Assembly: GCA_046582475.1 (NCBI GenBank)
Contig: JAYGEH010000280.1
Coordinates: 1 to 16,541 of the forward strand
Direction: 5' to 3'
Length of the DNA: 16,541 nt
Origin: Rhodospirillales bacterium
GTDB lineage: Bacteria > Pseudomonadota > Alphaproteobacteria > Rhodospirillales > UBA2165
This document shows positions 555 through 12,917 of the stretch, piece by piece. A program made the translations under genes and the position numbers. The notes under the pieces are model-generated. The model ran no database searches, was not told the origin of the DNA, and saw only the letters and a program-made list of their open reading frames with translations. Position 1 is the stretch's first letter. The number at the start of each line of letters is the position of its first letter.

Positions 555-1427
555 TTGGGCACATTGATCGGTGGACTCATTCAAATGTCCCTCAAGGGAG
601 ATACCGGCCAGGAACCGGCGGCGATAAGGGATGTAATGTTGGAAGCCCATCTGCCGCTGATCGAACAGTCGGGCAAGGCTGGCGTTCAAGTTCTTTGCCT
701 GCAGGAAGTGTTCACCCAACCCTATTTTTGCCCGAGCCAAGATGCCAAATGGTACGCCGCCGCCGAAACTATCCCGGAAGGCCCGACGGTTTCGTTGATG
801 CAGGAATTGGCGAAAAAACATACCATGGTCATCGTCGTTCCCATCTATGAGGAACACATCACCGGCGTTTATTACAATACCGCCGCGGTGATCGATGCGG
901 ATGGCTCCTACCTCGGAAAATATCGAAAGACCCACATTCCGCAGGTTGCCGGATTCTACGAAAAGTTTTTCATCAAGCCGGGGAATTCCGGCTGGCCCGT
1001 ATTCGATACGGCCTACTGCAAATTGGGCGTTTACATATGTTACGACCGCCATTTTCCGGAAGGCTGGCGGGCCTTGGCCATGAACGGCGCCGAATATATC
1101 GTCAACCCGTCGGCGACGGTCGCGGGCCTCAGTCAATATTTATGGGAACTGGAGCAACCAGCCGCCGCCGTCGCCAACGGCTGTTACATCGGCGCCGTGA
1201 ACCGAGTTGGGACCGAGGCGCCCTGGGATATCGGTCAATTTTATGGCTCCAGTTATTTCGTAAATCCGCGCGGCCAAATCATTGCTCAGGCTTCCGCCAC
1301 CGAGGACGAATTGCTGGTCGCCGAAATGGACTTGGATTTGATCCGCGAAGTGCGCGATTTGTGGCAATTCTTTCGCGATCGCCGCCCGGAAATGTACGCG
1401 TCTCTATCGGCGGTCGACGGGGTTTAG
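555..1427 (+). CDS. Nitrilase-superfamily (CN-hydrolase) amidohydrolase, closest in character to N-carbamoyl-D-amino-acid amidohydrolase / beta-ureidopropionase (DCase-like). The proposed start is TTG at 555 with a GGGAGG RBS at 544-549. The ORF track extends the frame to 300, but that N-terminal stretch has no homology.
   Basis: The E-K-C catalytic triad is in the expected contexts: 'VLCLQEVF' (Glu), 'GKYRKTHIP' (Lys) and 'GVYICYDRHFPE' (Cys). The C-terminus 'LLVAEMDLDLIREVRDLWQFFRDRRPEMY' matches the DCase C-terminal 'DLDRCRELREHIFNFKQHRQPQHY' pattern. The first beta-strand 'LIGGLIQ' aligns with DCase 'ILAVGQQ', so the ATG at 585 would truncate the fold. TTG-555 sits 5 nt after GGGAGG. The same TCAGGGAGG-N5-TTG context recurs at the hydantoinase gene at 16388-16401. 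Confidence 0.88.
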   Translation: MGTLIGGLIQMSLKGDTGQEPAAIRDVMLEAHLPLIEQSGKAGVQVLCLQEVFTQPYFCPSQDAKWYAAAETIPEGPTVSLMQELAKKHTMVIVVPIYEEHITGVYYNTAAVIDADGSYLGKYRKTHIPQVAGFYEKFFIKPGNSGWPVFDTAYCKLGVYICYDRHFPEGWRALAMNGAEYIVNPSATVAGLSQYLWELEQPAAAVANGCYIGAVNRVGTEAPWDIGQFYGSSYFVNPRGQIIAQASATEDELLVAEMDLDLIREVRDLWQFFRDRRPEMYASLSAVDGV

Positions 1428-1470
1428 CAATCAAAATTAAACGGGAAACCATTTTTAGGGAGATTACGGA

Positions 1471-2502
1471 ATGATCGATGAGCCAAGCCATTCACAACGG
1501 CGGCCTTTGGCGGGGACGCCCTACCGGCCGAGGCCTCTGGTAACCAATTCTCCGATCACCAGCACCGCGCCGGCAAGTTCGCTGGCGCGCGGCGGCGGCA
1601 AAAAGGAAATTCTGTGCGCATTTGGCATCGATGTGGATGCGGTGGCCGGCTGGCTCGGGTCCTACGGCGGTGAAGATTCGCCCTGCGATATATCCCGCGG
1701 CCTTTTCGCCGGCGAAATCGGAGTGCCGCGCCTGGTGCGCCTGTTTGACCGTATGTCCATCCCCACCACGTGGTTCATACCCGGCCATTCCATCGAAACC
1801 TTTCCCGAGCAATGCAAAACCGTCGTCGAAGCCGGCCACGAGATCGGCATGCATGGCTATTCCCACGAAAATCCCATTGCCATGACGCCGGAGCAGGAAG
1901 AGGCGGTCATGGACAAATGCATCGATTTGATCGACCGGCTTGCCGGAAAGCCGCCGTCCGGTTACGTGGCGCCCTGGTGGGAGTTCAGCGGCGTGACCAA
2001 CGAATTGCTGCTGAAAAAGGGATTTAACTACGACCACAGCCTGATGAATGACGACTTTCATCCCTTTTATGTGCGCGTCGGCGACCGATGGACGAAGATC
2101 GACTATTCGAAACACCCGGACGAATGGATGAAACCCCTGGTCAGGGGCGAGGAAACGGATCTGGTCGATATTCCGGGCAATTGGTATTTGGACGATCTGC
2201 CGCCGATGATGTTCATCAAGGCGGCGCCCAACAGCTTCGGCTTCGTCAATCCGCGCGATATCGAGGAGCTGTGGCGCGACCAGTTCGATTGGGTCTACCG
2301 GGAATACGACTATGCCGTCTTTGCCCTGACCATCCATCCCGATGTTTCGGGACGGCCGCAAGTACAGTTGATGCTCGAGCGCATATTCGCACACATCAAT
2401 AGCCACGCCGGTGTGCGCTTTTGCACCTTCGATGAAATCGCCAACGATTTCCGCAATCGGTATCCGCGCGGCGGAGAGGCCGCGCAAACGGCCGCCGAAT
2501 AG
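1471..2502 (+). CDS. Polysaccharide-deacetylase (NodB-homology) family hydrolase, similar to PuuE-type allantoinase and other cyclic-amide hydrolases.
   Basis: A '[10 protein letters not shown]' D-x-D motif and a '[12 protein letters not shown]' H-x3-H motif are present. The overall length and the C-terminal '[25 protein letters not shown]' segment resemble PuuE 'SIGLHCRLIGRPARMAALERFIQYA'. There is a GGGAGA RBS 8 nt before the ATG at 1471. The gene lies 43 nt downstream of the previous gene. Confidence 0.85.
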
Positions 2503-2516
2503 GCGCGCCCGAGCCC

Positions 2517-2855
2517 ATGTGCAGCCTTTGCGGCATGCTCGGCGGGCGCCGGCACTGGACCGAAAGCGCCAGCAATCCCAGCGCCTTTGCGCACCAGTCC
2601 GATCGCCCGACAATCCGGCGCGAGCGTCAGCAGCGGACGCGTCTGGTCAATCTCGTGCTCGCCCATTACGGCTTGACCCTGGCCGACTGGCCGCCGGCAA
2701 AATACATCCTCGGCAACGCCAAGGGCGGAACGCACTTGGTCGATAACCTCGGCGAATTGTGGCCGGCGGCTGATAGGCTTCTGAACGAAGCCTGTGATCC
2801 GCTCGATCGATCGCTGCTGCGCGCATTGTCGGCATCCCAGGGGGATGGAAATTGA
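2517..2855 (+). CDS. Small hypothetical protein (112 aa) with an N-terminal CxxC ('MCSLCGMLGGRRHW'). It is translationally coupled to the downstream COG0523 GTPase.
   Basis: The ORF has GC-rich third codon positions like neighbouring genes. It begins 14 nt after the deacetylase stop. Its TGA stop at 2853-2855 overlaps the TTG start of the next gene at 2852-2854 in a TTGA overlap. No family was recognised. No obvious SD is present. Confidence 0.5.
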   Translation: MCSLCGMLGGRRHWTESASNPSAFAHQSDRPTIRRERQQRTRLVNLVLAHYGLTLADWPPAKYILGNAKGGTHLVDNLGELWPAADRLLNEACDPLDRSLLRALSASQGDGN

Positions 2856-3922
2856 CCGACTACGCAACCCTGATACCGGTCTCGGTTGTTACCGGTTTTC
2901 TAGGCAGCGGCAAGACGACGCTGCTGAAAGACTTGTTGGCATCGCCTAGACTCCGTGAAACCGCTGTCCTGATCAACGAGTTCGGCGAAATCGGTCTCGA
3001 TCATCACTTGCTGCAACATGTCGCCGAAAGCACGTTATTGTTAAACAATGGCTGCCTCTGTTGCGCCGTCCGGAGCGATTTGACGCAAGCCTTGCGTGAC
3101 CTATTGTCACGCCGGGAACGAGGGGAAATTCCATATTTCCGGAGGGTGGTCGTCGAGACTTCGGGACTGGCCGATCCGGTGCCGATCGCCTACACGATAC
3201 TCGCCGATCCCATACTGCAAAATCATTTCCGGCTGGGAAGGATCGTCACCACGGTGGATGCGGTCAATGGCATGGCCACGTTGGCGGGCCACCCGGAATC
3301 GATCAAACAGGTGGCAGTTGCCGACCGGCTGATCCTGACCAAGACCGAGCTTTGCGAGAGCGCAACTGTCGAGGCGCTGATCGCCAAATTGCGGCGCCTC
3401 AACGGCTCGGCGCCGATCGTAAGAGCGGAAGCGGGCGGGCTCGATCCCGAGATGTTGGTCGGCGAAGATATGTTGGGCGCCAAAACAGGGTCCGGCGAGG
3501 CCGCCAAATGGCTGGCGGCGGACGACGCCAACATTTTGGATTTGGACACCCACGACCACCGCCACGCCGAAGGCGGCATTTATTCCTTTTGCCTGACCTT
3601 CGACGGTCCTCTGGATTGGGCCGCGTTCGGCATATGGATGAGCATGCTGCTTCATCGTCATGGTGAAAATGTGTTGCGGCTCAAGGGTTTGCTCAATGTC
3701 GCCGGCGCGGCGGCACCGGTACTGATCAACGGCGTCCAGCACATCGTCCATCCGCCGGCCCATCTGGACGCCTGGCCCGACGGCGACCGCCGCTCGCGCA
3801 TAATATTCATCCTGCGCGATCTTAAACGCGAGGAGATCGAAGCATCACTCGCCATATTCAATCGGCTCGCCCATGCGCCGCCGGCAGCGAGCCATCGCGA
3901 CCGGGCTCTGGGCATGGTGTGA
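2852..3922 (+). CDS. COG0523 / CobW-family G3E GTPase, a putative zinc/metal chaperone of the ZigA/YeiR/YciC type.
   Basis: Walker A 'GFLGSGKTT' is present. The hallmark COG0523 'GCLCC' motif appears as 'NNGCLCCAV'. 'VVETSGLADP' acts as the switch/Walker B region. The CobW_C-like C-terminal domain has a His-rich stretch 'LDLDTHDHRHAEGG'. The start codon is TTG. Confidence 0.9.
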   Translation: MTDYATLIPVSVVTGFLGSGKTTLLKDLLASPRLRETAVLINEFGEIGLDHHLLQHVAESTLLLNNGCLCCAVRSDLTQALRDLLSRRERGEIPYFRRVVVETSGLADPVPIAYTILADPILQNHFRLGRIVTTVDAVNGMATLAGHPESIKQVAVADRLILTKTELCESATVEALIAKLRRLNGSAPIVRAEAGGLDPEMLVGEDMLGAKTGSGEAAKWLAADDANILDLDTHDHRHAEGGIYSFCLTFDGPLDWAAFGIWMSMLLHRHGENVLRLKGLLNVAGAAAPVLINGVQHIVHPPAHLDAWPDGDRRSRIIFILRDLKREEIEASLAIFNRLAHAPPAASHRDRALGMV

Positions 3923-3929
3923 GGATCGC

Positions 3930-4472
3930 TTAGCCCGATTCGCCGGAATTTCTCAAATGCGGTGGGCGCTGGGGATGCCAGCCGAGACGAAACGCCCTGA
4001 CAACAAAGTGCAGCAAATAGATCAATATTGACAGGATGACCAAGGTCAGTATGCCGAGCAAATTGGAGCCGAACGCCGCGTCGATGATGGGTCCGCTGTT
4101 CATAAGGTGTTCGGCCAGCATCTCAATGGCTTGCAGGATCGCGCCGGCGCATAAAATCAGGGAAATCAGGATCGTCGTTTGCAAGGTGTCAAACACCAAC
4201 GTCTCGGCATCCAAATCACCGACGTTGCGGATAATGTTTTTGCGGAAGGATTGCCAGTGGGCAATGGCGTAACCGACGACACCGATCAAGGAGGCAAACC
4301 AAAACACCACATTGTTGAAATGGACATTGGGGATATGTTTAACCAGATAGGCTTCGAACGGCGGATAAAACAGCAGGAATATCAGCAGTATTACGATAAC
4401 GATCAGGCGGATCCAAAATTTCGGACGACCCACGAAAATGCCACCATTTTCGGACGCGGAAATTGCCATCAA
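3930..4472 (-). CDS. Hypothetical integral membrane protein (~180 aa, 4 predicted TM helices). It is convergent with the GTPase gene, with a 7 nt gap between stops.
   Basis: Four hydrophobic segments are present: 'IRLIVIVILLIFLLFYPPF', 'VVFWFASLIGVVGYAIAHW', 'TTILISLILCAGAILQAIEML' and 'LLGILTLVILSILIYLLHFVV'. The region is visibly AT-richer than its flanks. No family was recognised and the start codon is uncertain. Confidence 0.5.
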   Translation of the reverse strand: MMAISASENGGIFVGRPKFWIRLIVIVILLIFLLFYPPFEAYLVKHIPNVHFNNVVFWFASLIGVVGYAIAHWQSFRKNIIRNVGDLDAETLVFDTLQTTILISLILCAGAILQAIEMLAEHLMNSGPIIDAAFGSNLLGILTLVILSILIYLLHFVVRAFRLGWHPQRPPHLRNSGESG

Positions 4473-4621
4473 ACCAGCTAATATTCTAACATTGCGAATT
4501 ATCAGCCCGCATCGTATATCAAACTGCGTTCAAGTCAACGCGCCCGATTTTGGCAAAAATGTCGGTCCGAGCCGTTCATTTTCGATCAAATGAGAGTGCA
4601 ATTCGGATTCAAATGGATTGG

Positions 4622-4682
4622 GCCGGAGTCTATTTTAATCTATGATCCAATTGATCGATATCGGCTCCGGAAGAAAATCCGG
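4622..4682. promoter_or_regulatory. Operator-like palindromes in the divergent intergenic region between the membrane-protein gene and hyuA. An inverted repeat CCGGAG(4623-4628)...CTCCGG(4665-4670) flanks an AT-rich core. The core contains the palindromes ATCGAT and CGATATCG (4654-4663). Immediately after comes the hairpin CCGGA-agaaaa-TCCGG (4667-4682).
   Basis: Read directly from the sequence. Three TCCGG/CCGGA half-sites lie within 60 nt, upstream of the hyuA start at 4727. The promoter hexamers themselves could not be assigned confidently. Confidence 0.3.
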
Positions 4683-4726
4683 CTATTGTTGCGGGTATTT
4701 ATTTTAACAGGGATAGCGCGAATATC

Positions 4727-6793
4727 ATGGGCTGCCGTCTGGGCATCGATGTGGGAGGAACCTTCACCGACTTGTTGTTGTTTAACGACACAACGGGCGC
4801 CATCAATATTTATAAAACACCGTCCACACCCGAAGACCAATCGGTCGGAATTCTGATCGGAATTCAGAACCTGATTGCGGAAAACGCATTGAATATCGGT
4901 GATATCGATTCCCTTTTGCATGGAACCACCATTTCGACAAATATCGTTTTGGAAGAAAAAGGGGCGCGGGTCGGATTGCTTGTTACCGAAAATTTCGAAC
5001 AAGTTTTGCACCTTGCCCGCTCGCAAACTCCAGGGCCGCTGGCCGGTTGGATGATCATGATGAAACCGGATCCGCTGGCCGATCTCGAACACACCATTGG
5101 CATCAAGGAACGGATCGATGCCCATGGCGAGGTGGTTCAGAGCATGGATGAGGATCATGCCCGCGAATCGATCATGGCGCTTCTCGACGCGGATGTTGAA
5201 TCGCTCACCGTTTCGCTACTCCATTCCTATGCAAATCCGGTTCACGAAAAACGCCTAAAGGCGCTCATTGGTGAATTGGATGCCGATATTCCGATTTCAT
5301 TGTCTTCCGAAATTCTTCCGGAATTCCGGGAATACGAGCGCACGCTCGTTACCGTCATGAATGCCTATGTGGGTCCATCCATGCGGCGGTACTTGAGTAA
5401 TTTCGAGGAAAAGCTGAGCGCCATCAACTTTGCACCGCATGTCAATATCGTCCGTTCGGACGGCGGCCTGATGAGTGTCCAGCGGGCATCGGAATCACCG
5501 GTCCACACCATGTTGTCGGGACCGGCCGGCGGCGTATCGGGCGCCGCCCTTTTTTCATCCTTGGCCGGCCATCCCGATGCCTTGGGCTTCGACATGGGCG
5601 GCACATCGACCGACGTATCGTTGATCCAGAACGGCACCCCCAATATTTCCCGGCAAACCACCTTGGGATACTATCCCATCAAAGTGCCGTCGGTGGATGT
5701 GCATAGCGTCGGTGCCGGCGGCGGTTCGATCGCCCATGTGCCGATGACCGGCGCCCTGCGTGTCGGCCCGGAAAGCGCCGGCGCGGTGCCTGGTCCCGCG
5801 GCTTACGGCAAGGGCGGCGATCAGCCCACGGTGACCGACGCCAATATCGTACTGGGGCGGTTGCCGCACAGTCTGCTCGGCGGCGAAATGTCGCTCGATA
5901 TCAAGGCGTCAGAAGAGGTTGTATCCGAGATCGCCCGCTCCTTGGGTCTGGACATGTATCAGGCCGCCGCCGGCATTTTAGATATCGTCAACGAAAATAT
6001 GTTCGGTGCACTGCGCTTGGTGACCGTGCAAAAAGGGCTGGATCCGAGAGATTTTGCGATGGTCGCCTTCGGCGGCGCCGGTCCCTTGCATGGCAACGCG
6101 ATGGCAATACTGGCGGGCTGCTTTCCGGTCATCGTGCCGCCAACGCCTGGCGTGCTGTCCGCGCTCGGTTTTCTGCATTCCGATGTCAAAAATGAATTTG
6201 CCCAGACCTATGTGCGCAATATCGACGAAACCGACGGCGCCCAGATTGTTGAAAAATTTGCGAAATTGGGGCGCGAAGCCAGAACCTGGCTCCAGGAGGA
6301 AGGCATATCCGATACCGCCCAGAACCTGCGTTACGAAGCCGATGTCCGCTATTTTCGCCAGGGCTACGAATTTGCAATGGATGTCAATCCCGAGACGCTG
6401 ACCAATGGCGGTCTCGAAGGATTAGCGTCTCGATTTGGCGCATCGCACGAACAATTGTACGGCTTCAAGCTGGAACAGCCGGTCGAACTGGTCAATTTGC
6501 GCGCCATCGGCACCGGCGAAGTGGGAAAAATCGAATTCCCAAAGTTCGACAAGGGTCCCCAGGACCCGTCGGCGGCGGTGGTCGACCAGCACCAAGTCTA
6601 TTTCGATGGTAATTTTGCGATGACCAATATTTACGGCCGTGACAAATTGACCGCCGGCAACCGTCTCGCCGGCCCTGCCGTGATCACGCAAAAGGATTCC
6701 ACGACAATCATCCATCCCGGCCACGCCGGGGTGGTTGACGAATATTTGAGTATCCTGATTTATCCCGATGCACTTGTTCCCGGAGACATGTAG
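4727..6793 (+). CDS. hyuA: ATP-dependent hydantoinase/oxoprolinase family, A subunit. The family includes N-methylhydantoinase A, HyuA, the acetone carboxylase beta subunit and the 5-oxoprolinase A subunit.
   Basis: The N-terminus 'MGCRLGIDVGGTFTDLLLF' is the classic Hydantoinase_A ASKHA-fold start. A second glycine-rich nucleotide loop appears as 'ALGFDMGGTSTD'. The length of 688 aa is typical. The TAG stop at 6791-6793 lies 3 nt before the next ATG. Confidence 0.92.
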   Translation: MGCRLGIDVGGTFTDLLLFNDTTGAINIYKTPSTPEDQSVGILIGIQNLIAENALNIGDIDSLLHGTTISTNIVLEEKGARVGLLVTENFEQVLHLARSQTPGPLAGWMIMMKPDPLADLEHTIGIKERIDAHGEVVQSMDEDHARESIMALLDADVESLTVSLLHSYANPVHEKRLKALIGELDADIPISLSSEILPEFREYERTLVTVMNAYVGPSMRRYLSNFEEKLSAINFAPHVNIVRSDGGLMSVQRASESPVHTMLSGPAGGVSGAALFSSLAGHPDALGFDMGGTSTDVSLIQNGTPNISRQTTLGYYPIKVPSVDVHSVGAGGGSIAHVPMTGALRVGPESAGAVPGPAAYGKGGDQPTVTDANIVLGRLPHSLLGGEMSLDIKASEEVVSEIARSLGLDMYQAAAGILDIVNENMFGALRLVTVQKGLDPRDFAMVAFGGAGPLHGNAMAILAGCFPVIVPPTPGVLSALGFLHSDVKNEFAQTYVRNIDETDGAQIVEKFAKLGREARTWLQEEGISDTAQNLRYEADVRYFRQGYEFAMDVNPETLTNGGLEGLASRFGASHEQLYGFKLEQPVELVNLRAIGTGEVGKIEFPKFDKGPQDPSAAVVDQHQVYFDGNFAMTNIYGRDKLTAGNRLAGPAVITQKDSTTIIHPGHAGVVDEYLSILIYPDALVPGDM

Positions 6794-6796
6794 GTC

Positions 6797-7216
6797 ATGG
6801 CCGATTTCAATCCGCTCAGTCAATCGATCTCGTTCAAGGATATTCTGAAATCGAACAAGAAACAGTTCGACAAGATGTTCGAAGATCAAATGAACGCCGC
6901 CGGGCTTCGGCGGGTTTCGCACCGGCCCGCGACCCTTGAGGATCTGGAATCCGATGGCGCCGGCAACGGCAACGAAGGATTGGATGCGACCAATGTCACC
7001 CAATTCCTGAACGAGAAATTCGGCGCCAACTGGTCGTCCGAGGTGGTCGAGCATAATAACGAACGCGGTATGGTCACCGTGCTTTGCAAACTATCGGTCA
7101 ACGGCTCGTCGAAAATGCAGTTTGGCTCGGCGCGCGCCAACGGCGATCTGGGCGGCGCGCTGCAAAAGGCGACCAACGAAGCCTTGCTGCAATGCGCACA
7201 GAACTTCGGTTTCGAA
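6797..7216 (+). other. Rad52/Rad22/Sak-family single-strand-annealing-protein-like domain, forming the N-terminal ~140 aa of the HyuB ORF. It is followed by a disordered P/A/E-rich linker at 7217-7375.
   Basis: 'GLDATNVTQFLNEKFGANWSSEVVEH' aligns with Rad52/Sak 'YIDARAVQDRLDEVFGPENWS.E...EH'. 'GMVTVLCKLSVNGSSKMQFGSARANGDLGGALQKATNEALLQCAQNFGF' aligns with Rad52 '[53 protein letters not shown]' and with Sak 'YLCTLSIFIDGV..SKSDG..GGLSGAFKRAAVMWGVG'. This corresponds to the beta-hairpin, the G..G loop and the K/R-x-A-x3-A-x-KR-A-x3-FG helix. The linker reads 'PGPAAAPAAEPVPARSKEPAAGQEAG'. The alignment is from memory, not an HMM search. Confidence 0.5.
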
Positions 7217-9151
7217 GATGGCGCGGAGGGTGCCGTTCAAGAACCGCTTTCCGGCCCGCAAGCCCTTTCCGAGACTGAAGAGACGCCGGTATTGGATAAA
7301 CCCGGTCCGGCGGCGGCACCGGCAGCCGAGCCGGTTCCCGCCCGGAGCAAAGAACCAGCGGCGGGGCAAGAGGCCGGCCTGGATACCATTGTCTTGGATC
7401 TCATCGAAAACGCCCTGCGCAATGCCCGCCATGAGATGGATGTGGTGCTGTTCCGCTCGGCGATGTCGCCGGTCATTCGCGAACAGCACGATGAATTTCC
7501 CATGATCACCGATGCCAAGGGGCGCATGATCGTTGGTCAATTCGGCTCCTATATTACCGAAATGCTGAAGGATCAAAGTTTTGATCTATTGCAAGGCGAT
7601 GTCATTTTGCAAAGCGATCCGTTCAAGTGTGGCGGCGCCATAAGCCATATCAACGACTGGATGGTGTTGGTACCGGTATTTTTCGATGGCGAGTTGGTGG
7701 GATTCTCCTCGATGTTCGGGCATATGATGGATGTGGGCGGGCCGGTGCCCGGCAGCATGCCGACGGCGGCAACTTCCATTTATGGCGAAGGCATGCGCAT
7801 TCCGCCGATCAAAATATATTCCAAGGGGGCGTTAAACCAGGCGGCGCTCGACATTCTCATGAACAATACGCGGACGCCGGAAATGAACTTCAGCGATTTG
7901 ATGGCGATCATCGCCGGATGCCGAGCCGGCGAAAAGCGGATTATTGAAATGTGCGCCCGCTTTGGTAAGGAAACCTATAAAGCGGCTTGCGAAGCGTTGC
8001 TGGAACGGACCAACCGCGCCATGCGCCAGTTGATTGTCCAGAACCTTCCCGAAGAACCCGCCTCGTTCGAAGATTACGTCGACGATGACGGCTTGGGCAA
8101 CGGGCCCTTCAAAATGAAGATCACGATTTGGCGCGAGGGCGAGCACGCCTATTTCGATTGGACCGGCACCTCGCCGCAAGCGCCCGGCCCGATTAACTTT
8201 TACCTCCATGACGGTATGTTCAAGATGTTCATCGGCATCTACATGATCATGGTGTTCGACCCCCAGATTCTGTTCAACGACGGATTTTACGACCTCATCC
8301 ACGTCACCCTTCCGGAGGGATCCTTGCTGCACCCGGATTTCCCGGCGGCGCTTGGATGCCGCACCCATGCCTTGGCCCGGCAATTCGACGTGCTCGGCGG
8401 CGCGCTCAGCAAAAACGCACCGGAAATGGCGACGGCGGCCGGCTACGGCTCCAGCCCGCATTTCATATATTCGGGCGTCGATGCAAAGGGCCGGCCGTTC
8501 CAACTCATGGAAATTCTCTACGGCGGTATTCCCGGGCGTCCGGTCGGTGACGGCATGGACGGGCATTCCTGGTGGCCGTTGTTCGAAAACATCCCGACCG
8601 AATATCTGGAAACTTATTATCCGCTGCGCATCGAAAGCTACAAAAGCATCGCCGATACCGGCGGGGCGGGGCAGCATCGCGGCGGTAACGGCATTGAAAA
8701 AATTTACCGGCTTCTCGAAGATGGGGAAATTTCCATCCACGACGACCGCCATTTAACCCAGCCTTGGGGTATTCTTGGCGGCCAGCCCGGGGCCTATTCC
8801 GATAAAGTGCTGGTGAGAAAAAACGGTGCCGAGGAACCTTTGCCGGCGAAAGTGGATAATGTCAGGGTTCACAAAGACGACCGGATAATATTCCGCACCG
8901 CGGGCGGCGGCGGCTGGGGGGACCCCTTGGAACGCGAACCGTCGAGGGTGCGCAATGATGTTGCGCGAAATTTGATGTCTGCGGAAATGGCTCACGACGC
9001 CTATGGCGTTGTGTTGACGGGAGACGGGTATCAGCTCGATTTACGGGCCACCGAGGAGAACCGGGAAAATTTGAGGCGCAACAGGAAGGCGCTGCCGCAA
9101 TATGACTTTGGTGAAATGAAAACCGGCGGAAAATTGCACGCAACCGATTAA
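6797..9151 (+). CDS. hyuB: Hydantoinase B / N-methylhydantoinase B (HyuB) family subunit with an atypical ~195-aa N-terminal extension. The extension is a Rad52/Rad22/Sak-like domain plus a Pro/Ala/Glu-rich linker. The gene is translationally coupled to hyuA.
   Basis: The Hydantoinase_B region begins near aa 195 with 'GLDTIVLDLIENALRNARHEMDVVLFRSAMSPVIREQHDEF'. Further Hydantoinase_B blocks are 'GDVILQSDPFKCGGAISHINDWMVLVPVFFDGELVGF', 'GPVPGSMPTAATSIYGEGMRIPPIKIY', 'ADTGGAGQHRGGNG' and 'RTAGGGGWGDPLEREP'. The ATG at 6797 lies 3 nt after the hyuA stop, preceded by GGAGA. The frame is open from 6797 with no stop. Confidence 0.9.
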   Translation: MADFNPLSQSISFKDILKSNKKQFDKMFEDQMNAAGLRRVSHRPATLEDLESDGAGNGNEGLDATNVTQFLNEKFGANWSSEVVEHNNERGMVTVLCKLSVNGSSKMQFGSARANGDLGGALQKATNEALLQCAQNFGFEDGAEGAVQEPLSGPQALSETEETPVLDKPGPAAAPAAEPVPARSKEPAAGQEAGLDTIVLDLIENALRNARHEMDVVLFRSAMSPVIREQHDEFPMITDAKGRMIVGQFGSYITEMLKDQSFDLLQGDVILQSDPFKCGGAISHINDWMVLVPVFFDGELVGFSSMFGHMMDVGGPVPGSMPTAATSIYGEGMRIPPIKIYSKGALNQAALDILMNNTRTPEMNFSDLMAIIAGCRAGEKRIIEMCARFGKETYKAACEALLERTNRAMRQLIVQNLPEEPASFEDYVDDDGLGNGPFKMKITIWREGEHAYFDWTGTSPQAPGPINFYLHDGMFKMFIGIYMIMVFDPQILFNDGFYDLIHVTLPEGSLLHPDFPAALGCRTHALARQFDVLGGALSKNAPEMATAAGYGSSPHFIYSGVDAKGRPFQLMEILYGGIPGRPVGDGMDGHSWWPLFENIPTEYLETYYPLRIESYKSIADTGGAGQHRGGNGIEKIYRLLEDGEISIHDDRHLTQPWGILGGQPGAYSDKVLVRKNGAEEPLPAKVDNVRVHKDDRIIFRTAGGGGWGDPLEREPSRVRNDVARNLMSAEMAHDAYGVVLTGDGYQLDLRATEENRENLRRNRKALPQYDFGEMKTGGKLHATD

Positions 9152-9236: not shown

Positions 9237-11792
9237 ATGGTTGAATTGGCCATCGTACTCTTCGTTTCGGCGATAATTCTCCTCGCGATTCTCTATATTA
9301 TCTCGATCTGGGTGTACAAACGCGCGCCGGCCAACATGGGCTTCGTTCGAACCGGGTTCCTGGGCACCAAGGTTTGCCTTGGCCGCGGCGCGATGGTGCT
9401 ACCGGTATTTCACGAAATCTCCTGGGTATCGCTGGAGACCATCAAATTGATCGTCAGCCGCACCCGCGATCAGGCGGTTCTGACCTCCGATAAAATTCGC
9501 GTCGACATTTCAACCGAACTTTATGCCCATGTCGGGCGTACCGAGACGGATTTGCTTGCCGCAAGCCGCAGTTTGGGAGAGAAGACATTCGATGCCGAAA
9601 AAGTACGAAACCTTTTGGAAGCGAAGATCGTGGGTGCCATCCGCAGTTACGCCGCCACCAAAACACTGAGCGAGCTACACGAAAACCGGGACGCGTTCGG
9701 GGAGGCTCTCAAGGACAATGTGGTCGAAAGTTTCAAGGCCAACGGCTTGGATCTTGAGGAAGTGACGGTCGTTACTCTCGAACAATCGGGCAAGGAATTT
9801 TTCAAAACCGACAACATTTTCGATGCCGAAGGTCTGAAGATCATCACCGAGATCACCTCTGACGCCAAGCGCAAGGTGCACGAAACCGAAAAACGCACAA
9901 CCGTCGCCATTCGCCAGAAAGATCTGGATACGCAGGTGGACCTGCTTGACATCGATCGCCAGGAAGCCAATGCCCGCGCCAACCAAGACAAGGCGATTTC
10001 CAACGAACAAGCGCTGCAACTAGGGGAAAAGCAGGTCTATGTGCTTGATCAGCGGATGATCGTCGAGGCCAAGGAGATTGAAAACGAGGTCGATTTGGAG
10101 CGTCTCAGGACCGAGCGCGACATCGCCTTGACGGAAGAGGCGAGGAAGCGGGAAACCTCCGATATTCGCATCGGCTTGGCGTTGGAACAGGAACGCCGGG
10201 ACCGGGAAATCGCCCTCATCCACAAGACAAAGGAAGAGGAACTTGCCGAGGTTCAACGAAAATTGGATCTGGAGAAAGCGGAAAAGGATCGCCAGATACA
10301 GCTGATTGCCAAGGAACAAGAACGCCAGCAATCCGATATTTTGCGCACCACCGAAGTCTTGAAATCAGAAGAAGAGGCCCGCAAGGAGCGTCATTTGGCC
10401 GAGGAGGTTGCGGCGCTGCAAATGCGCAAACAAAGTTTGCAGACGACGTTGGAAAAACTCGAACTGGAAAAAGAAGAGGCGATTGCCGAAGCCTCGCAGG
10501 AAAAAGAGATTTCCAACGAAAAAGCGCGCGTACTGAGCGAACAGCAACGCTTTATATTGGATCAGCGCTGGGAAGTCGAACAGGAGGAAATCATTAAGGA
10601 ACTGGCGCTGGAAAAGGAGAAAATTAAAAGGGATGCCGAAATTATTGAAGAATCGAAGGCGCGTGAAGTGGCCGAAATCAAGCGCACATTGGCACAGGAA
10701 ATTGAGGAACAGGAACGGCAGATCACGATAATCGAAAAGGAAAAAGAACGCGAAATTGCAGATATCCAACGCTTCCAAGCCCGCGAACAGGAGGAGCGCG
10801 ACCGCGAGATTGCCTTTGCGCGGAAAACCAAGGAACTTGAAAATGCCGAGGCGGACCGCCTCAAGGCGACCGCGGAGAAGGAAAAAGCCTTGAAAGCCGT
10901 TGATTCGGTGCGGGTCCTTGCCGATGCGGAGGTGGAAAAGGAAGTGGTGCGCATCGGCTCCGAAAAAGAAGCGGAATCGCGCCGCATCGACGAAGAAAAC
11001 AAAGCGCAAATCACCCGCATGCATATGATCACCCAGGCCGAAGCCCGCAAACTTTCGTCCGAACAGGAGGCAGAGGCCACCATTACCCGGGCGAAGGCGA
11101 CCAGCGAAGCCCAGAAGATAACTGCCGAGGGCATGGAAGTGGAAGCCGGCGCCGAAGGCCGGGCCGAAATGGAGATCGACACGCTGCGCATCGAAAATAC
11201 GCAACGGATGTTGGAAGCCGAAGCGACCGGCTTGGAGGCAAAGGCGGGGGCGCTGAAAAAATATAACGATGCGGCGACATTCCTTGAACTCGCCAAGCTG
11301 CAGATCGAAGCCGACCGTGACGTCCATATCGATCAGGCAAAGGCCATGGGAAGCGCGCTTACCGGGGCCCAGATCCGCATGTATGGCGGCGGTGATGACA
11401 CCGTCGATACCATACGCAAAATGTTCACGTCGGGCTTTTCGATTGGCGAGGCGCTGGAAGGCATGGCCCAGTCGCTGCCGGAAGGTTTACGGTCGCGCTT
11501 TGCCGAAAACGGCATTCGCGGTTTGTTGGGCCGCCCAATTGGCGGCAGCCAGTTCGTGGAAATCGCCCGCCGGTTGACGGAACTGGTGGATGATACCATG
11601 CCCACCGAAGCCGATCGGGCCCTATCGTTTGTTGCGGCATTGGAAAAATTGGAAGACGCGGCGGGCGACGATGCGCTCGGCATCAAGGCGGTCGATATGC
11701 TCAAAGAGGCGAATGAGGGCGGTGGGTTCGACGATGTTCCGTTCGAATCGGTTTGGGTTTTCCTGCAAGCCGCCCTCAAAATCGCCGGCTGA
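9237..11792 (+). CDS. SPFH/Band-7 flotillin-family membrane-scaffold protein (YqiK/FloT-like). It is unusually long at 851 aa, with an N-terminal TM helix, an SPFH domain, an expanded E/A/K/R-rich coiled-coil region and a flotillin-type C-terminal domain.
   Basis: The N-terminal TM segment is 'LAIVLFVSAIILLAILYIISIWVY'. The SPFH core is 'VRTGFLGTKVCLGRGAMVLPVFHEISWVSLETIKLIVSRTRDQAVLTSDKIRVDIS'. About 450 aa of heptad-like EA-rich repeats run from aa ~240 to 700. The C-terminal region is 'AKAMGSALTGAQIRMYGGGDDTVDTIRKMFTSGFSIGEALEGMAQSLP'. Confidence 0.88.
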   Translation: MVELAIVLFVSAIILLAILYIISIWVYKRAPANMGFVRTGFLGTKVCLGRGAMVLPVFHEISWVSLETIKLIVSRTRDQAVLTSDKIRVDISTELYAHVGRTETDLLAASRSLGEKTFDAEKVRNLLEAKIVGAIRSYAATKTLSELHENRDAFGEALKDNVVESFKANGLDLEEVTVVTLEQSGKEFFKTDNIFDAEGLKIITEITSDAKRKVHETEKRTTVAIRQKDLDTQVDLLDIDRQEANARANQDKAISNEQALQLGEKQVYVLDQRMIVEAKEIENEVDLERLRTERDIALTEEARKRETSDIRIGLALEQERRDREIALIHKTKEEELAEVQRKLDLEKAEKDRQIQLIAKEQERQQSDILRTTEVLKSEEEARKERHLAEEVAALQMRKQSLQTTLEKLELEKEEAIAEASQEKEISNEKARVLSEQQRFILDQRWEVEQEEIIKELALEKEKIKRDAEIIEESKAREVAEIKRTLAQEIEEQERQITIIEKEKEREIADIQRFQAREQEERDREIAFARKTKELENAEADRLKATAEKEKALKAVDSVRVLADAEVEKEVVRIGSEKEAESRRIDEENKAQITRMHMITQAEARKLSSEQEAEATITRAKATSEAQKITAEGMEVEAGAEGRAEMEIDTLRIENTQRMLEAEATGLEAKAGALKKYNDAATFLELAKLQIEADRDVHIDQAKAMGSALTGAQIRMYGGGDDTVDTIRKMFTSGFSIGEALEGMAQSLPEGLRSRFAENGIRGLLGRPIGGSQFVEIARRLTELVDDTMPTEADRALSFVAALEKLEDAAGDDALGIKAVDMLKEANEGGGFDDVPFESVWVFLQAALKIAG
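9978..10346 (+). repeat. Copy 1 of a divergent ~120-aa tandemly duplicated coiled-coil module inside the flotillin gene (aa ~248-370).
   Basis: The protein-level repeat reads 'AISNEQALQLGEKQVYVLDQRMIVEAKEIENEVDLERLRTERDIALTEEARKRETSDIRIGLALEQERRDREIALIHKTKEEELAEVQRKL'. Its counterpart is copy 2, 'EISNEKARVLSEQQRFILDQRWEVEQEEIIKELALEKEKIKRDAEIIEESKAREVAEIKRTLAQEIEEQERQITIIEKEKEREIADIQRF'. Shared anchors are ISNE, LDQR and ERRDREIA/EERDREIA followed by KTKE. Confidence 0.6.
10491..10871 (+). repeat. Copy 2 of the duplicated coiled-coil module (aa ~419-545).
   Basis: See copy 1. The 'EISNEKARVLSEQQRFILDQRWEVEQEE...EQEERDREIAFARKTKELENAEADRLKA' segment parallels 'AISNEQALQLGEKQVYVLDQRMIVEAKE...EQERRDREIALIHKTKEEELAEVQRKL'. 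Confidence 0.6.
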
Positions 11793-11819
11793 CCGCCGAC
11801 GCCAGCCGGACACCAACCG

Positions 11820-12917
11820 ATGCCCAATTATGATGTCATTCTCGAGAACGTTAACAAGACGTTCGACGGCGACGTTCAAGCGGTCATCGATTTCAACGCC
11901 CAAATCGAGCACGGCGAATTCGTCGCCCTGCTCGGCCCCAGCGGCTGTGGTAAGACCACCATCTTGCGTATAATCGGCGGATTGGAGGAAGTCACAAGCG
12001 GCAGAATATACATCGCCGGCAATGACGTAACTGATCTGCCGCCATCGCACCGGGATACCGCGATGATGTTCCAAAGCTTTGCGCTTTTCCCGCATCGAAC
12101 GGTTATGCAGAACGTCGAATTTTCCTTGAAAATGAAGGGCATGTCCAGGGACGAGCGGGCACCACTGGTGTGGGACATGCTTGGCATGGTCGACCTGACC
12201 GAGCTGGCTCAGCGCCGGCCGAGCGACCTTTCCGGCGGACAGCAGCAGCGCGTGGCGCTGGCGCGTGCGCTCATCGCGCGTCCGACTGTACTGTTGCTGG
12301 ACGAGCCACTCGGCGCCCTCGATTTCAATTTGCGCAAATCCATGATGGTGGAGCTCAAAAAAATCCAGCGCGATCTGGGCATCACCTTCATCATGGTTAC
12401 CCACTCCCAGCAAGAAGCCCTTTCGATGGCCGACAACGTGATCGTCATGTCCGACGCGGTGATCCAGCAGATCGGAAGCTCAAGGAAAATTGCCGAAAAT
12501 CCGCGTACAAAATTCGTCGCCGAGTTTATAGGCAACAACAATATATTCGGCGGCGTCATTAAATCGCGCAGCGGTTCTATCGTCTTCATGGAATCGGGTG
12601 AGCATGTATTTTACGTCCGAGTGCCGGAACATACCCGCCATGTAACCGTAGGGCGCCAAGCCCATTTCTCTGTTCGTGCCGATCTCATGCGCACCGGCGA
12701 TCCCAACGGCATGGCCAACCAAATAACAGGAAAATATATCACTACCGAATTCATGGGTTCGCTGGAAACGGACGTTTTCGAGGTCGGCGAAGGTCTGATC
12801 GTCCAAATTGAGCAGCATCGTCAGGCATCGGATCGCATGTACAAAATGGGTGAAGTCGAAACCATCTCATGGGGTGCGGAATCTGGTGTCCTCTTGGACC
12901 AGGCAATGCCGGACTAG
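11820..12917 (+). CDS. ABC transporter ATP-binding protein of the PotA/MalK type, with a C-terminal TOBE/regulatory domain.
   Basis: Walker A is 'GPSGCGKTT' and the Q-loop is 'MMFQSFALFPH'. The ABC signature is 'LSGGQQQRVALARAL', Walker B is 'VLLLDEPLGALD' and the H-loop is 'IMVTHSQ'. A ~120-aa C-terminal extension follows. The gene starts 27 nt after the flotillin stop, with no obvious SD. Confidence 0.9.
   Translation: MPNYDVILENVNKTFDGDVQAVIDFNAQIEHGEFVALLGPSGCGKTTILRIIGGLEEVTSGRIYIAGNDVTDLPPSHRDTAMMFQSFALFPHRTVMQNVEFSLKMKGMSRDERAPLVWDMLGMVDLTELAQRRPSDLSGGQQQRVALARALIARPTVLLLDEPLGALDFNLRKSMMVELKKIQRDLGITFIMVTHSQQEALSMADNVIVMSDAVIQQIGSSRKIAENPRTKFVAEFIGNNNIFGGVIKSRSGSIVFMESGEHVFYVRVPEHTRHVTVGRQAHFSVRADLMRTGDPNGMANQITGKYITTEFMGSLETDVFEVGEGLIVQIEQHRQASDRMYKMGEVETISWGAESGVLLDQAMPD

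Follow-up and report, generated by a model that had tools for sequence, protein, structure and literature searches.

A Rad52-family domain fused to the B subunit of a hydantoinase-type enzyme in uncultured Alphaproteobacteria

Why would a subunit of an ATP-dependent ring-opening amidohydrolase begin with a domain related to DNA-annealing proteins? The question is raised by hyuB, an open reading frame (ORF) at positions 6797..9151 (+) of the Rhodospirillales contig JAYGEH010000280.1, the whole 16,541 bp of which form the window analysed here. The ORF runs without interruption, encodes 784 aa and is entered at NCBI as 'MAG: hydantoinase B/oxoprolinase family protein [Rhodospirillales bacterium]' (MAG, metagenome-assembled genome). 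An original prediction, made from the letters of the window, held that this protein carries a Rad52/Sak-like domain as an in-frame fusion, and sequence profiles, the predicted fold and the conservation of the fusion in other loci all bear this out. As judged from sequence, the first 195 aa of HyuB are a translated and selectively maintained module. Its N-domain has lost the annealase signature and recurs as a free second copy next to a gene for another hydrolase, and the genes of a membrane scaffold and a transporter keep strict synteny with it.

To our knowledge, the known proteins of the Rad52 superfamily all act on DNA or RNA. Here, a domain of this superfamily is found in an unprecedented and apparently non-recombinational context: a conserved family under purifying selection, with a core that lacks the DNA-binding apparatus, occurs either joined to a catabolic hydrolase or in a gene next to one. 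A literature search returned no paper linking a hydantoinase or oxoprolinase with Rad52 and none linking a hydantoinase with a flotillin, and a structural survey from 2024, which covers more than 10,000 Rad52-superfamily single-strand annealing proteins (SSAPs), does not mention enzyme fusions (PMC11783212). Whichever of the functions considered below applies, the family represents an unannotated domain that exists in fused and in free form among the abundant uncultured Alphaproteobacteria of sea and soil.

Identity of the N-terminal core

The Hydantoinase_B family (PF02538) matches HyuB at aa 196-710 with an E value of 1.2e-148 and over profile positions 1-519 of 519, in agreement with the predicted start of the catalytic fold near aa 195. 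Since the profile is complete from aa 196, the preceding 195 aa are a true extension, made up of a leader, a variable segment, a core and a linker (Table 1). The top Pfam match of this extension is Rad52_Rad22 (PF04098), at 18-18.9 bits (E 0.0015-0.0028) and thus just under the gathering score of 20.3, and one orthologue (P0109) carries a precomputed PF04098 match. We found no Pfam family other than Rad52 in aa 1-193, and no Pfam or NCBIfam match of this region to the gamma subunit of acetone carboxylase or to the beta or epsilon subunit of acetophenone carboxylase (Apc).

A family profile was built from 26 diverse fused N-domains and searched against 1.84 billion representative sequences, where it found 488 proteins. 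These include 37 standalone proteins (175-320 aa) that match over the core only (E 1e-11 to 1e-8); all but one (36/37) belong to PF04098 with scores that pass its threshold (best E 2e-19), and the 37 also match phage SSAP families in PHROGs. Conversely, a hidden Markov model (HMM) made from the N-termini of these Rad52 proteins recognised all 26 fused domains at 38.6-87.3 bits and the HyuB of the contig at 78.8 bits. The motifs LNE-FG--WS-EVVEH, KMQFGS and A--(D/E)AL--CA--FG are common to the fused domains and bacterial Rad52. An hhalign comparison of the family alignment with human RAD52 gave no match, with an alignment of low diversity (Neff 1.8) and a template of one sequence.

Close inspection of HyuB showed that the stretches quoted in the original prediction are all present, namely LDATNVTQFLNEKFGANWSS at aa 62-81, VTVLCKLSV at aa 93-101, NGDLGG at aa 115-120 and ALQKATNEALLQCAQNFGF at aa 121-139. 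In the AlphaFold2 (AF2) model of aa 1-150, the core is predicted at a local confidence (predicted local distance difference test, pLDDT) of about 90, the leader helices at 59-80 and aa 36-62 below 50. The full-length model gives the same picture, with the core at 87-91 and the linker at about 30. The predicted core contains a three-stranded β-sheet crossed by a bridging helix, and VTVLCKLSV, which had been read as a β-hairpin, is the middle strand of this sheet. Of the roughly 140 N-terminal residues that had been described as Rad52-like, aa 63-140 fit that description, and aa 1-62 are instead a family-specific leader and variable segment.

When the predicted core was compared with known structures using Foldseek, six RAD52 chains ranked first, and in a viral fold library the first rank was taken by a 'DNA repair protein Rad52/59/22' of an uncultured phage (E 1e-5, 28% identity). 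The next-best structural matches are the RNA-binding folds of the double-stranded RNA-binding domain (dsRBD), uS5 and HPF. The structural margin is small, and it is therefore the sequence evidence that decides the Rad52 identity. That the core might be a generic dsRBD-like α-β-β-β-α domain with no specific relationship to Rad52 is very improbable. Against it stand the score of 78.8 bits with an HMM of Pfam-verified Rad52 proteins, the long identical motifs and the reciprocal profile matches (E 1e-11 in 1.84 billion sequences), and no family member has a dsrm or Ribosomal_S5 Pfam match. The core likewise belongs to no dsRBD or uS5/HPF-like profile, and the generic-fold explanation is effectively refuted.

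Profile and fold comparisons thus identify the core as a bona fide, if divergent, Rad52-family domain that is closest to a bacterial/phage clade. With the Rad52-type SSAPs of bacteria and phages (PF04098; PHROGs 37405, 1097 and 3290) it shares a homologous helix, three-stranded sheet and bridging helix, the motifs LN--FG--W, WS-EVVEH, KMQFG and A--(D/E)AL--CA--FG, and the best structural matches. The N-terminal domains of human RAD52, yeast Rad52 and Mgm101 share this core fold and are 16-23% identical to it over 73-90 residues. Given the closeness to bacterial and phage proteins, capture of a phage or prophage SSAP gene is the likely origin. Most likely the module was acquired from such a gene before the diversification of a HyuB clade that occurs mainly in uncultured Alphaproteobacteria.

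The sole sequence match of the family profile in the PDB is the anti-CRISPR protein AcrIF5 (E 0.058), over aa 99-130 (7091-7186) and the pattern 'KM--G-ARA--D-GAA--A---A', and is probably due to chance.

Maintenance of the fusion

As originally described, the frame is uninterrupted from an ATG at 6797 that begins 3 nt past the hyuA stop codon TAG (6791-6793). The arrangement of a GGAGA site followed by the ATG recurs in 47 orthologues, 3-23 nt past the hyuA stop, and hyuA lies directly 5' of the fused hyuB in 46 of 46 large loci.

Database matches suggested at first sight a different architecture. A search with aa 1-193 detected 48 homologues, most of them called as 'standalone' proteins of 150-230 aa, as would be expected if the fusion were an error of assembly or annotation and the true state were two genes. 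The C-terminal tails of these proteins, however, are the start of HyuB read out of frame, as in one that ends '...GSTRFRSI', a shifted reading of RLDTVSLDLI. The entries come from long-read assemblies in which hyuA and hyuB are split too, as we found at the locus behind one of them. We scanned GTDB with one genome per species and obtained 61 loci, all from MAGs and mostly from Alphaproteobacteria (Xanthobacteraceae and Rhodospirillaceae), with single bins of Acidiferrobacteraceae, SAR324 and Ruegeria. About 50 of these 61 species loci encode the N-domain in frame with HyuB (742-794 aa) directly after hyuA; the exceptions are indel-prone long-read assemblies with frameshifts inside hyuB as well, and all complete short-read loci carry the fusion. 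Metagenome loci reached through the neighbouring SPFH gene have the in-frame fusion in 44 of 44 cases, and the protein collection holds more than 120 fused orthologues of 740-792 aa. The architecture of a separate small gene was rejected as a product of frameshifts, and an artefactual fusion, to which we give almost no credence, is effectively refuted.

In the long-read MAGs, the GC-rich linker, hyuA and hyuB all contain indels, and many spurious small 'standalone' proteins have entered public collections in this way (among them P0003, P0006, P0015, P0026, P0039 and P0045, and those of loci L001, L013, L023, L048, L054, L059 and L060). In practical terms, many 'standalone' versions held in protein databases are products of these frameshifts.

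Is the extension translated, and is it of use to the cell? It could be a non-functional relic of a captured prophage gene, as the phage-type SSAPs among its closest relatives might suggest, or it could be left untranslated, with the real start near 7379. The AAGAGG-N5-CTG noted there is indeed present (7368-7381), with its CTG (7379-7381) in frame. This CTG is codon L195, in the conserved N-terminus of HyuB, and we detected no conserved internal start codon in the linker across orthologues; it is the upstream Shine-Dalgarno-like site and ATG that are conserved. CTG is a rare start codon. Pairwise dN/dS (the ratio of nonsynonymous to synonymous substitution rates), calculated for 582 unsaturated pairs, is 0.13 in the leader, 0.21 in the variable segment, 0.14 in the core, 0.55 in the linker and 0.09 in HyuB. 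The low values of the leader and core, close to that of the enzyme, indicate that the extension is translated and functional. The linker (32-54 aa across orthologues, 31% pairwise identity) behaves, by its substitution pattern, as a relaxed tether. The fusion has also been kept in lineages where the HyuB part is only 45% identical. The proposal of a captured prophage recombination gene is accordingly plausible as an origin, with nearest relatives that match phage SSAP families, and fails as the description of a relic under such strong purifying selection; a relic or untranslated extension is highly improbable and is effectively refuted by the selection analysis. None of the findings that would speak against the fusion was encountered: Rad52-family matches exist, no frameshift separates the two parts and no alternative start is conserved.

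Loss of annealase features and a candidate assembly role

The Rad52 superfamily is defined by the motif of a sheet plus bridging helix and by a β-hairpin, both considered essential for annealing (PMC11783212). In HyuB, no strand is predicted before residue 79 in either AF2 model (aa 1-150 or full length), and aa 38-62 sit where true Rad52 proteins carry the hairpin. Alignment of the fused domains to the Rad52 HMM begins only at position 83-98, compared with position 53, hairpin included, for human RAD52. The fused domains have none of the hairpin residues of the Rad52 groove, and past the bridging helix they continue into the disordered linker in place of the corresponding Rad52 region.

Residue conservation was compared in complete N-domains aligned via the Rad52 HMM (26 fused domains and 37 true bacterial Rad52 proteins). 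Where human RAD52 has K144, K152 and R153, and at the Arg of 'RLNEAF', 33-36 of the 37 true bacterial Rad52 proteins carry K/R. The corresponding counts in the fused family are 8/26 (K144), 12/26 (K152), 14/26 (R153) and 3/26 (RLNEAF Arg), and HyuB of the contig has Q123, L131 and Q132 at these positions. The conserved basic and aromatic residues of the groove for single-stranded DNA (human R55, Y65, K152 and R153, the K144-equivalent and the RLNEAF Arg) are thus not retained. The DNA-binding rings of human and yeast Rad52 and of Mgm101 use R55, Y65, K152, R153 and R156 together with the hairpin, all of which are absent or unconserved in the fused domain. With the hairpin absent and the groove residues not retained, the label 'single-strand-annealing domain' given in the original prediction finds no support, and on this evidence the domain appears to be no canonical annealing protein. 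It also differs from bacterial and phage Rad52-type SSAPs in lacking the C-terminal region past the bridging helix, in its novel leader, in its position on a metabolic enzyme or beside a hydrolase gene, and in the absence of exonuclease, SSB or phage neighbours.

A free paralogue of leader and core (150-190 aa) is encoded in about 40 of the 46 large loci and in a divergent locus, L068. It is found at 8001-8579 (+) in L064, at 1204-1725 (-) in L001, at 5974-6423 (-) in L068 and at roughly 3200-3700 (-) in the large loci, lies 10-14 nt past an isochorismatase-family gene, terminates exactly at the bridging helix and has no Pfam domain. The leader motif of the fused proteins, S-x-(S/T)-F-D-D-L-L-K-x-N-K-x-Q-F-D, is common to the free paralogues, and both families fit S-x-F-D-D/E-L-L-x-x-N/S-K/R-x-Q-F-D/E. 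Beyond the leader, the residues conserved in both families all belong to the structural core, and we saw no polar site shared across the fused and free families. The free paralogue is translationally coupled to the isochorismatase-family gene, next to the module of genes described below.

We propose that the domain may no longer be a DNA annealase and may serve, by exaptation, in protein assembly or tethering. Known members of the Rad52 fold self-assemble into rings or filaments, and the core would oligomerise with itself and/or with the free paralogue, whose gene neighbours that of the isochorismatase-family amidase. Both paralogues would dock on one and the same partner through the leader helix that they share, with (HyuA-HyuB)2 suspended from the hub by the flexible linker. 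As a result, the ATP-dependent ring-opening enzyme would be clustered, possibly with the next amidase of the pathway and perhaps at the membrane, where the co-conserved flotillin-like SPFH scaffold would be its neighbour along with the ABC importer and the small membrane protein. To this reading, with the core as oligomerisation hub, the leader as docking helix for a common partner and the clustering of (HyuA-HyuB)2, perhaps at a flotillin-like scaffold, as the effect, we assign a probability of roughly one half. Among the three readings offered by the original prediction (a regulatory nucleic-acid-binding module, an oligomerisation scaffold and a prophage footprint), the scaffold seems to fit the evidence best.

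The enzyme family offers both parallels and differences. The hyuA-hyuB pair encodes full-length Hydantoinase_A and Hydantoinase_B domains, as in the HyuAB/CapAB/5-oxoprolinase family, in which accessory subunits occur: CapAB is (αβ)2, acetone carboxylase (αβγ)2 and acetophenone carboxylase (αα'βγ)2 plus ε, with the (αβ)2 core built around a β-β dimer (PMC8453981). Small extra subunits on this core are known (acetone carboxylase gamma; acetophenone carboxylase beta and epsilon) (PMC8453981), whereas the extra module is here covalently tethered, with a free paralogue besides. Known HyuB and CapB proteins, unlike the present one, begin directly with the fold, and CapB was modelled from residue 1 (PMC8453981). 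HyuB of the contig cannot be equated with the characterised caprolactamase CapB or acetophenone carboxylase ApcD by the NCBIfam cut-offs: CapB, its closest NCBIfam, scores 242 bits against a cut-off of 1000, and ApcD 137 bits against 1500. Similarly, the closest NCBIfam of hyuA is CapA, with a score far under the cut-off.

Several points weigh against an assembly role. The role is inferred from lost features and gene context. In RAD52 structures, helices after the bridging helix help complete the subunit interfaces of the ring; these and the hairpin are missing here, so ring formation may also have been lost. No free paralogue is within reach on the contig itself or in Rhodospirillaceae-type loci, and a hetero-oligomer can therefore not be obligatory. 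All co-conservation with SPFH falls within a single syntenic clade, where inheritance of the operon could account for it without any physical interaction. A K/R equivalent to R153 is kept in 14/26 fused domains and 32/44 free paralogues, so that some nucleic-acid affinity is possible, and the net charge of the core is similar in true bacterial Rad52 (-1.5) and in fused domains (-1.0). Net charge or pI was for this reason rejected as an argument against DNA binding, true bacterial Rad52 cores being equally acidic. The full-length AF2 model, with a low mean pLDDT of 64.5, shows no sign of the N-domain docking on HyuB and is uninformative on contacts.

Some of these points favour another function, in which the domain still binds single-stranded nucleic acid and HyuB is a 'trigger enzyme' that regulates its own operon or mRNA, or is tethered to nucleic acid. 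The true homology to Rad52 proteins that bind single-stranded DNA speaks for it, as do the sheet and bridging helix that form the floor of the DNA groove, which are intact in the predicted fold, the RNA-binding folds among the next-best structural matches, the partly retained R153-equivalent and the lack of a counter-argument from charge. The β-hairpin described as essential for annealing is, however, missing (PMC11783212), the equivalents of K144, K152 and the RLNEAF Arg are unconserved (with Q123, L131 and Q132 in the contig), no Rfam element or obvious operator was found, and a second, free copy beside another hydrolase is hard to reconcile with an autoregulator. The nucleic-acid-binding reading of the original prediction is weakened by this evidence, and we consider it unlikely, though far from negligible. 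PutA-type trigger enzymes, which likewise carry an N-terminal domain from a DNA-binding family, would be its precedent; PutA is also membrane-associated. Its domain is a ribbon-helix-helix, whereas in HyuB a Rad52 domain, unprecedented in such a role, has unconserved binding residues and comes with no evidence of an operator. A Rad52-derived motif is also known in the different domain context of RDM1, whose function is distinct from that of RAD52 (PMC11783212). There it is paired with an RRM and nucleic acids are still bound, in contrast to the subunit of an ATP-dependent amidohydrolase that is the partner here. If HyuB still binds nucleic acid, it would represent a new type of trigger enzyme.

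A further possibility is that the core is an allosteric sensor of a small molecule that regulates HyuAB, comparable to the β-β-β-α regulatory domain of isopropylmalate synthase. The polar residues that would be invoked are unconserved in the free paralogues, which share the structural residues alone, and several of them (in WS-EVVEH and KMQFG) derive from the Rad52 clade itself. The long disordered tether, as modelled, also suggests no fixed contact with the catalytic domain, and ligand sensing appears improbable.

Should the domain oligomerise as proposed for the assembly role, nature would here have put a recombinase ring to new use as a scaffold that clusters enzymes, and perhaps also as a means by which a bacterial flotillin recruits clients. 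Little is understood of which clients such flotillins have and how they recruit them. In the most far-reaching form of this reading, which we put forward tentatively and regard as unlikely, the domain would be the first of the Rad52 superfamily with a function that does not involve nucleic acid. A phage annealase core, once domesticated, would act as a hub that forms rings or filaments. By way of the shared docking helix and the tether, the ring-opening amidohydrolase (and also the next amidase, through the free paralogue) would be brought into a metabolon close to the membrane, with the giant flotillin-like SPFH scaffold beside the ABC importer as its organiser.

Gene neighbourhood

Around hyuB, we detected a module in the order PuuE-like hydrolase, orf112, CobW, a membrane protein on the minus strand, hyuA, Rad52-like::hyuB, SPFH and PotA-like ATPase (Table 1). 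This order is kept in 44-46 of the 46 large loci, and the analysis flags it as a conserved catabolic module of 8-10 genes for nitrogen compounds.

Table 1. Features of the window around the fused hyuB gene
Feature	Position	Strand	Description
PuuE-like polysaccharide-deacetylase-family hydrolase	1471-2502	+	Pfam, NCBIfam; in 44-46 of 46 loci
orf112, 112 aa	2517-2855	+	between the deacetylase-family hydrolase and CobW; in 44/46 loci
CobW/COG0523 GTPase	2852-3922	+	Pfam, NCBIfam; in 44-46 of 46 loci
orf180, small multi-pass membrane protein	3930..4472	-	upstream of and divergent from hyuA; hydrophobic sequence
hyuA, hydantoinase/oxoprolinase A subunit, 688 aa	4727..6793	+	Pfam Hydant_A_N, Hydantoinase_A, Hydant_A_C; translationally coupled upstream partner
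GGAGA, Shine-Dalgarno-like site	6782..6786	+	10 nt before ATG 6797; read from sequence
N-terminal leader, aa 1-37	6797..6907	+	predicted amphipathic helices 13-19 and 21-34; conserved in alignments
Variable low-confidence segment, aa 38-62	6908..6982	+	small conserved motif H-R-P-x-T-x-x-D-L-x-S
Rad52-family core, aa 63-140 (78 aa, α-β-β-β-α)	6983..7216	+	predicted helix 64-75, strands 79-89, 92-101 and 104-113, bridging helix 118-141
Pro/Ala/Glu-rich disordered linker, aa 141-195	7217..7381	+	about 55 aa; pLDDT about 30
Hydantoinase_B catalytic subunit, aa 196-784, plus stop codon	7382..9151	+	PF02538
Flotillin-like SPFH protein, 851 aa	9237..11792	+	N-terminal transmembrane helix, Pfam Band_7, E/K/R coiled coil of about 450 aa, conserved C-terminal domain (11154-11789); weak FloT match
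PotA-like ABC transporter ATPase	11820..12917	+	Pfam ABC_tran, TOBE_2; NCBIfam PotA-like; next gene after SPFH

By its annotations, the gene context appears catabolic and membrane-related and not one of recombination, phage or defence. Pfam, NCBIfam and PADLOC searches of the neighbourhood detected no recombination, phage or defence genes (exonuclease, SSB or replication module) near the fused hyuB. A defence-system context was rejected for lack of any PADLOC match, and a riboswitch or other RNA element for lack of any Rfam match.

The SPFH gene adjoins the fused hyuB downstream in 45 of the 46 large loci and in L068, and in the reverse test, starting from the SPFH gene, the fused hyuB was found upstream in 44 of 44 loci. 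In combining an N-terminal transmembrane helix with an SPFH domain and a long coiled coil, the protein resembles the flotillin/SPFH systems FloT/FloA and HflK/C. Its length far exceeds that of FloT, we recognised no NfeD-like partner, and a literature search returned no description of its strict pairing with a catabolic enzyme bearing a Rad52-like domain. At 851 aa, it is unusually long for such a protein. The PotA-like ATPase is present in 46/46 and 66/66 loci, and orf180, which has no Pfam, NCBIfam or PADLOC match, in 46/46 loci at 61% identity (53% for the L068 homologue).

In L068, the HyuB part of the fused protein is only 45% identical to that of the contig, and the locus retains the membrane protein, hyuA, the fusion, SPFH (58% identity) and the ABC genes. 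It also contains an additional, unfused hyuAB pair that has no SPFH neighbour. The unfused HyuB (3100-4992) is 52% identical to the HyuB part of the contig, compared with 45% for the fused one (10001-12289); either the fused lineage is fast-evolving there or the history of the fusion is not that of a simple single clade. Two orf180 paralogues are encoded in the same locus (7188-7646 and 19562-20023).

The orf112 product starts with an MCSLCGMLGG (CxxC) motif, matches no family and might work together with the CobW GTPase in a metal-related role. Upstream of the module, a CN_hydrolase gene (N-carbamoylputrescine-amidase-like; 300-1427, +) is listed as a GTG ORF with about 100 aa ahead of the domain and is probably over-extended. 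It has a weak match (29% identity) in only 11 of 46 related loci, most of which have an isochorismatase-family gene near the module instead. Finally, in a tblastn search the C-terminal region of the SPFH protein was found with 100% identity in a JGI metagenome contig (L069, Ga0310122_10012630), and thus the same or a very close organism has been sampled independently.

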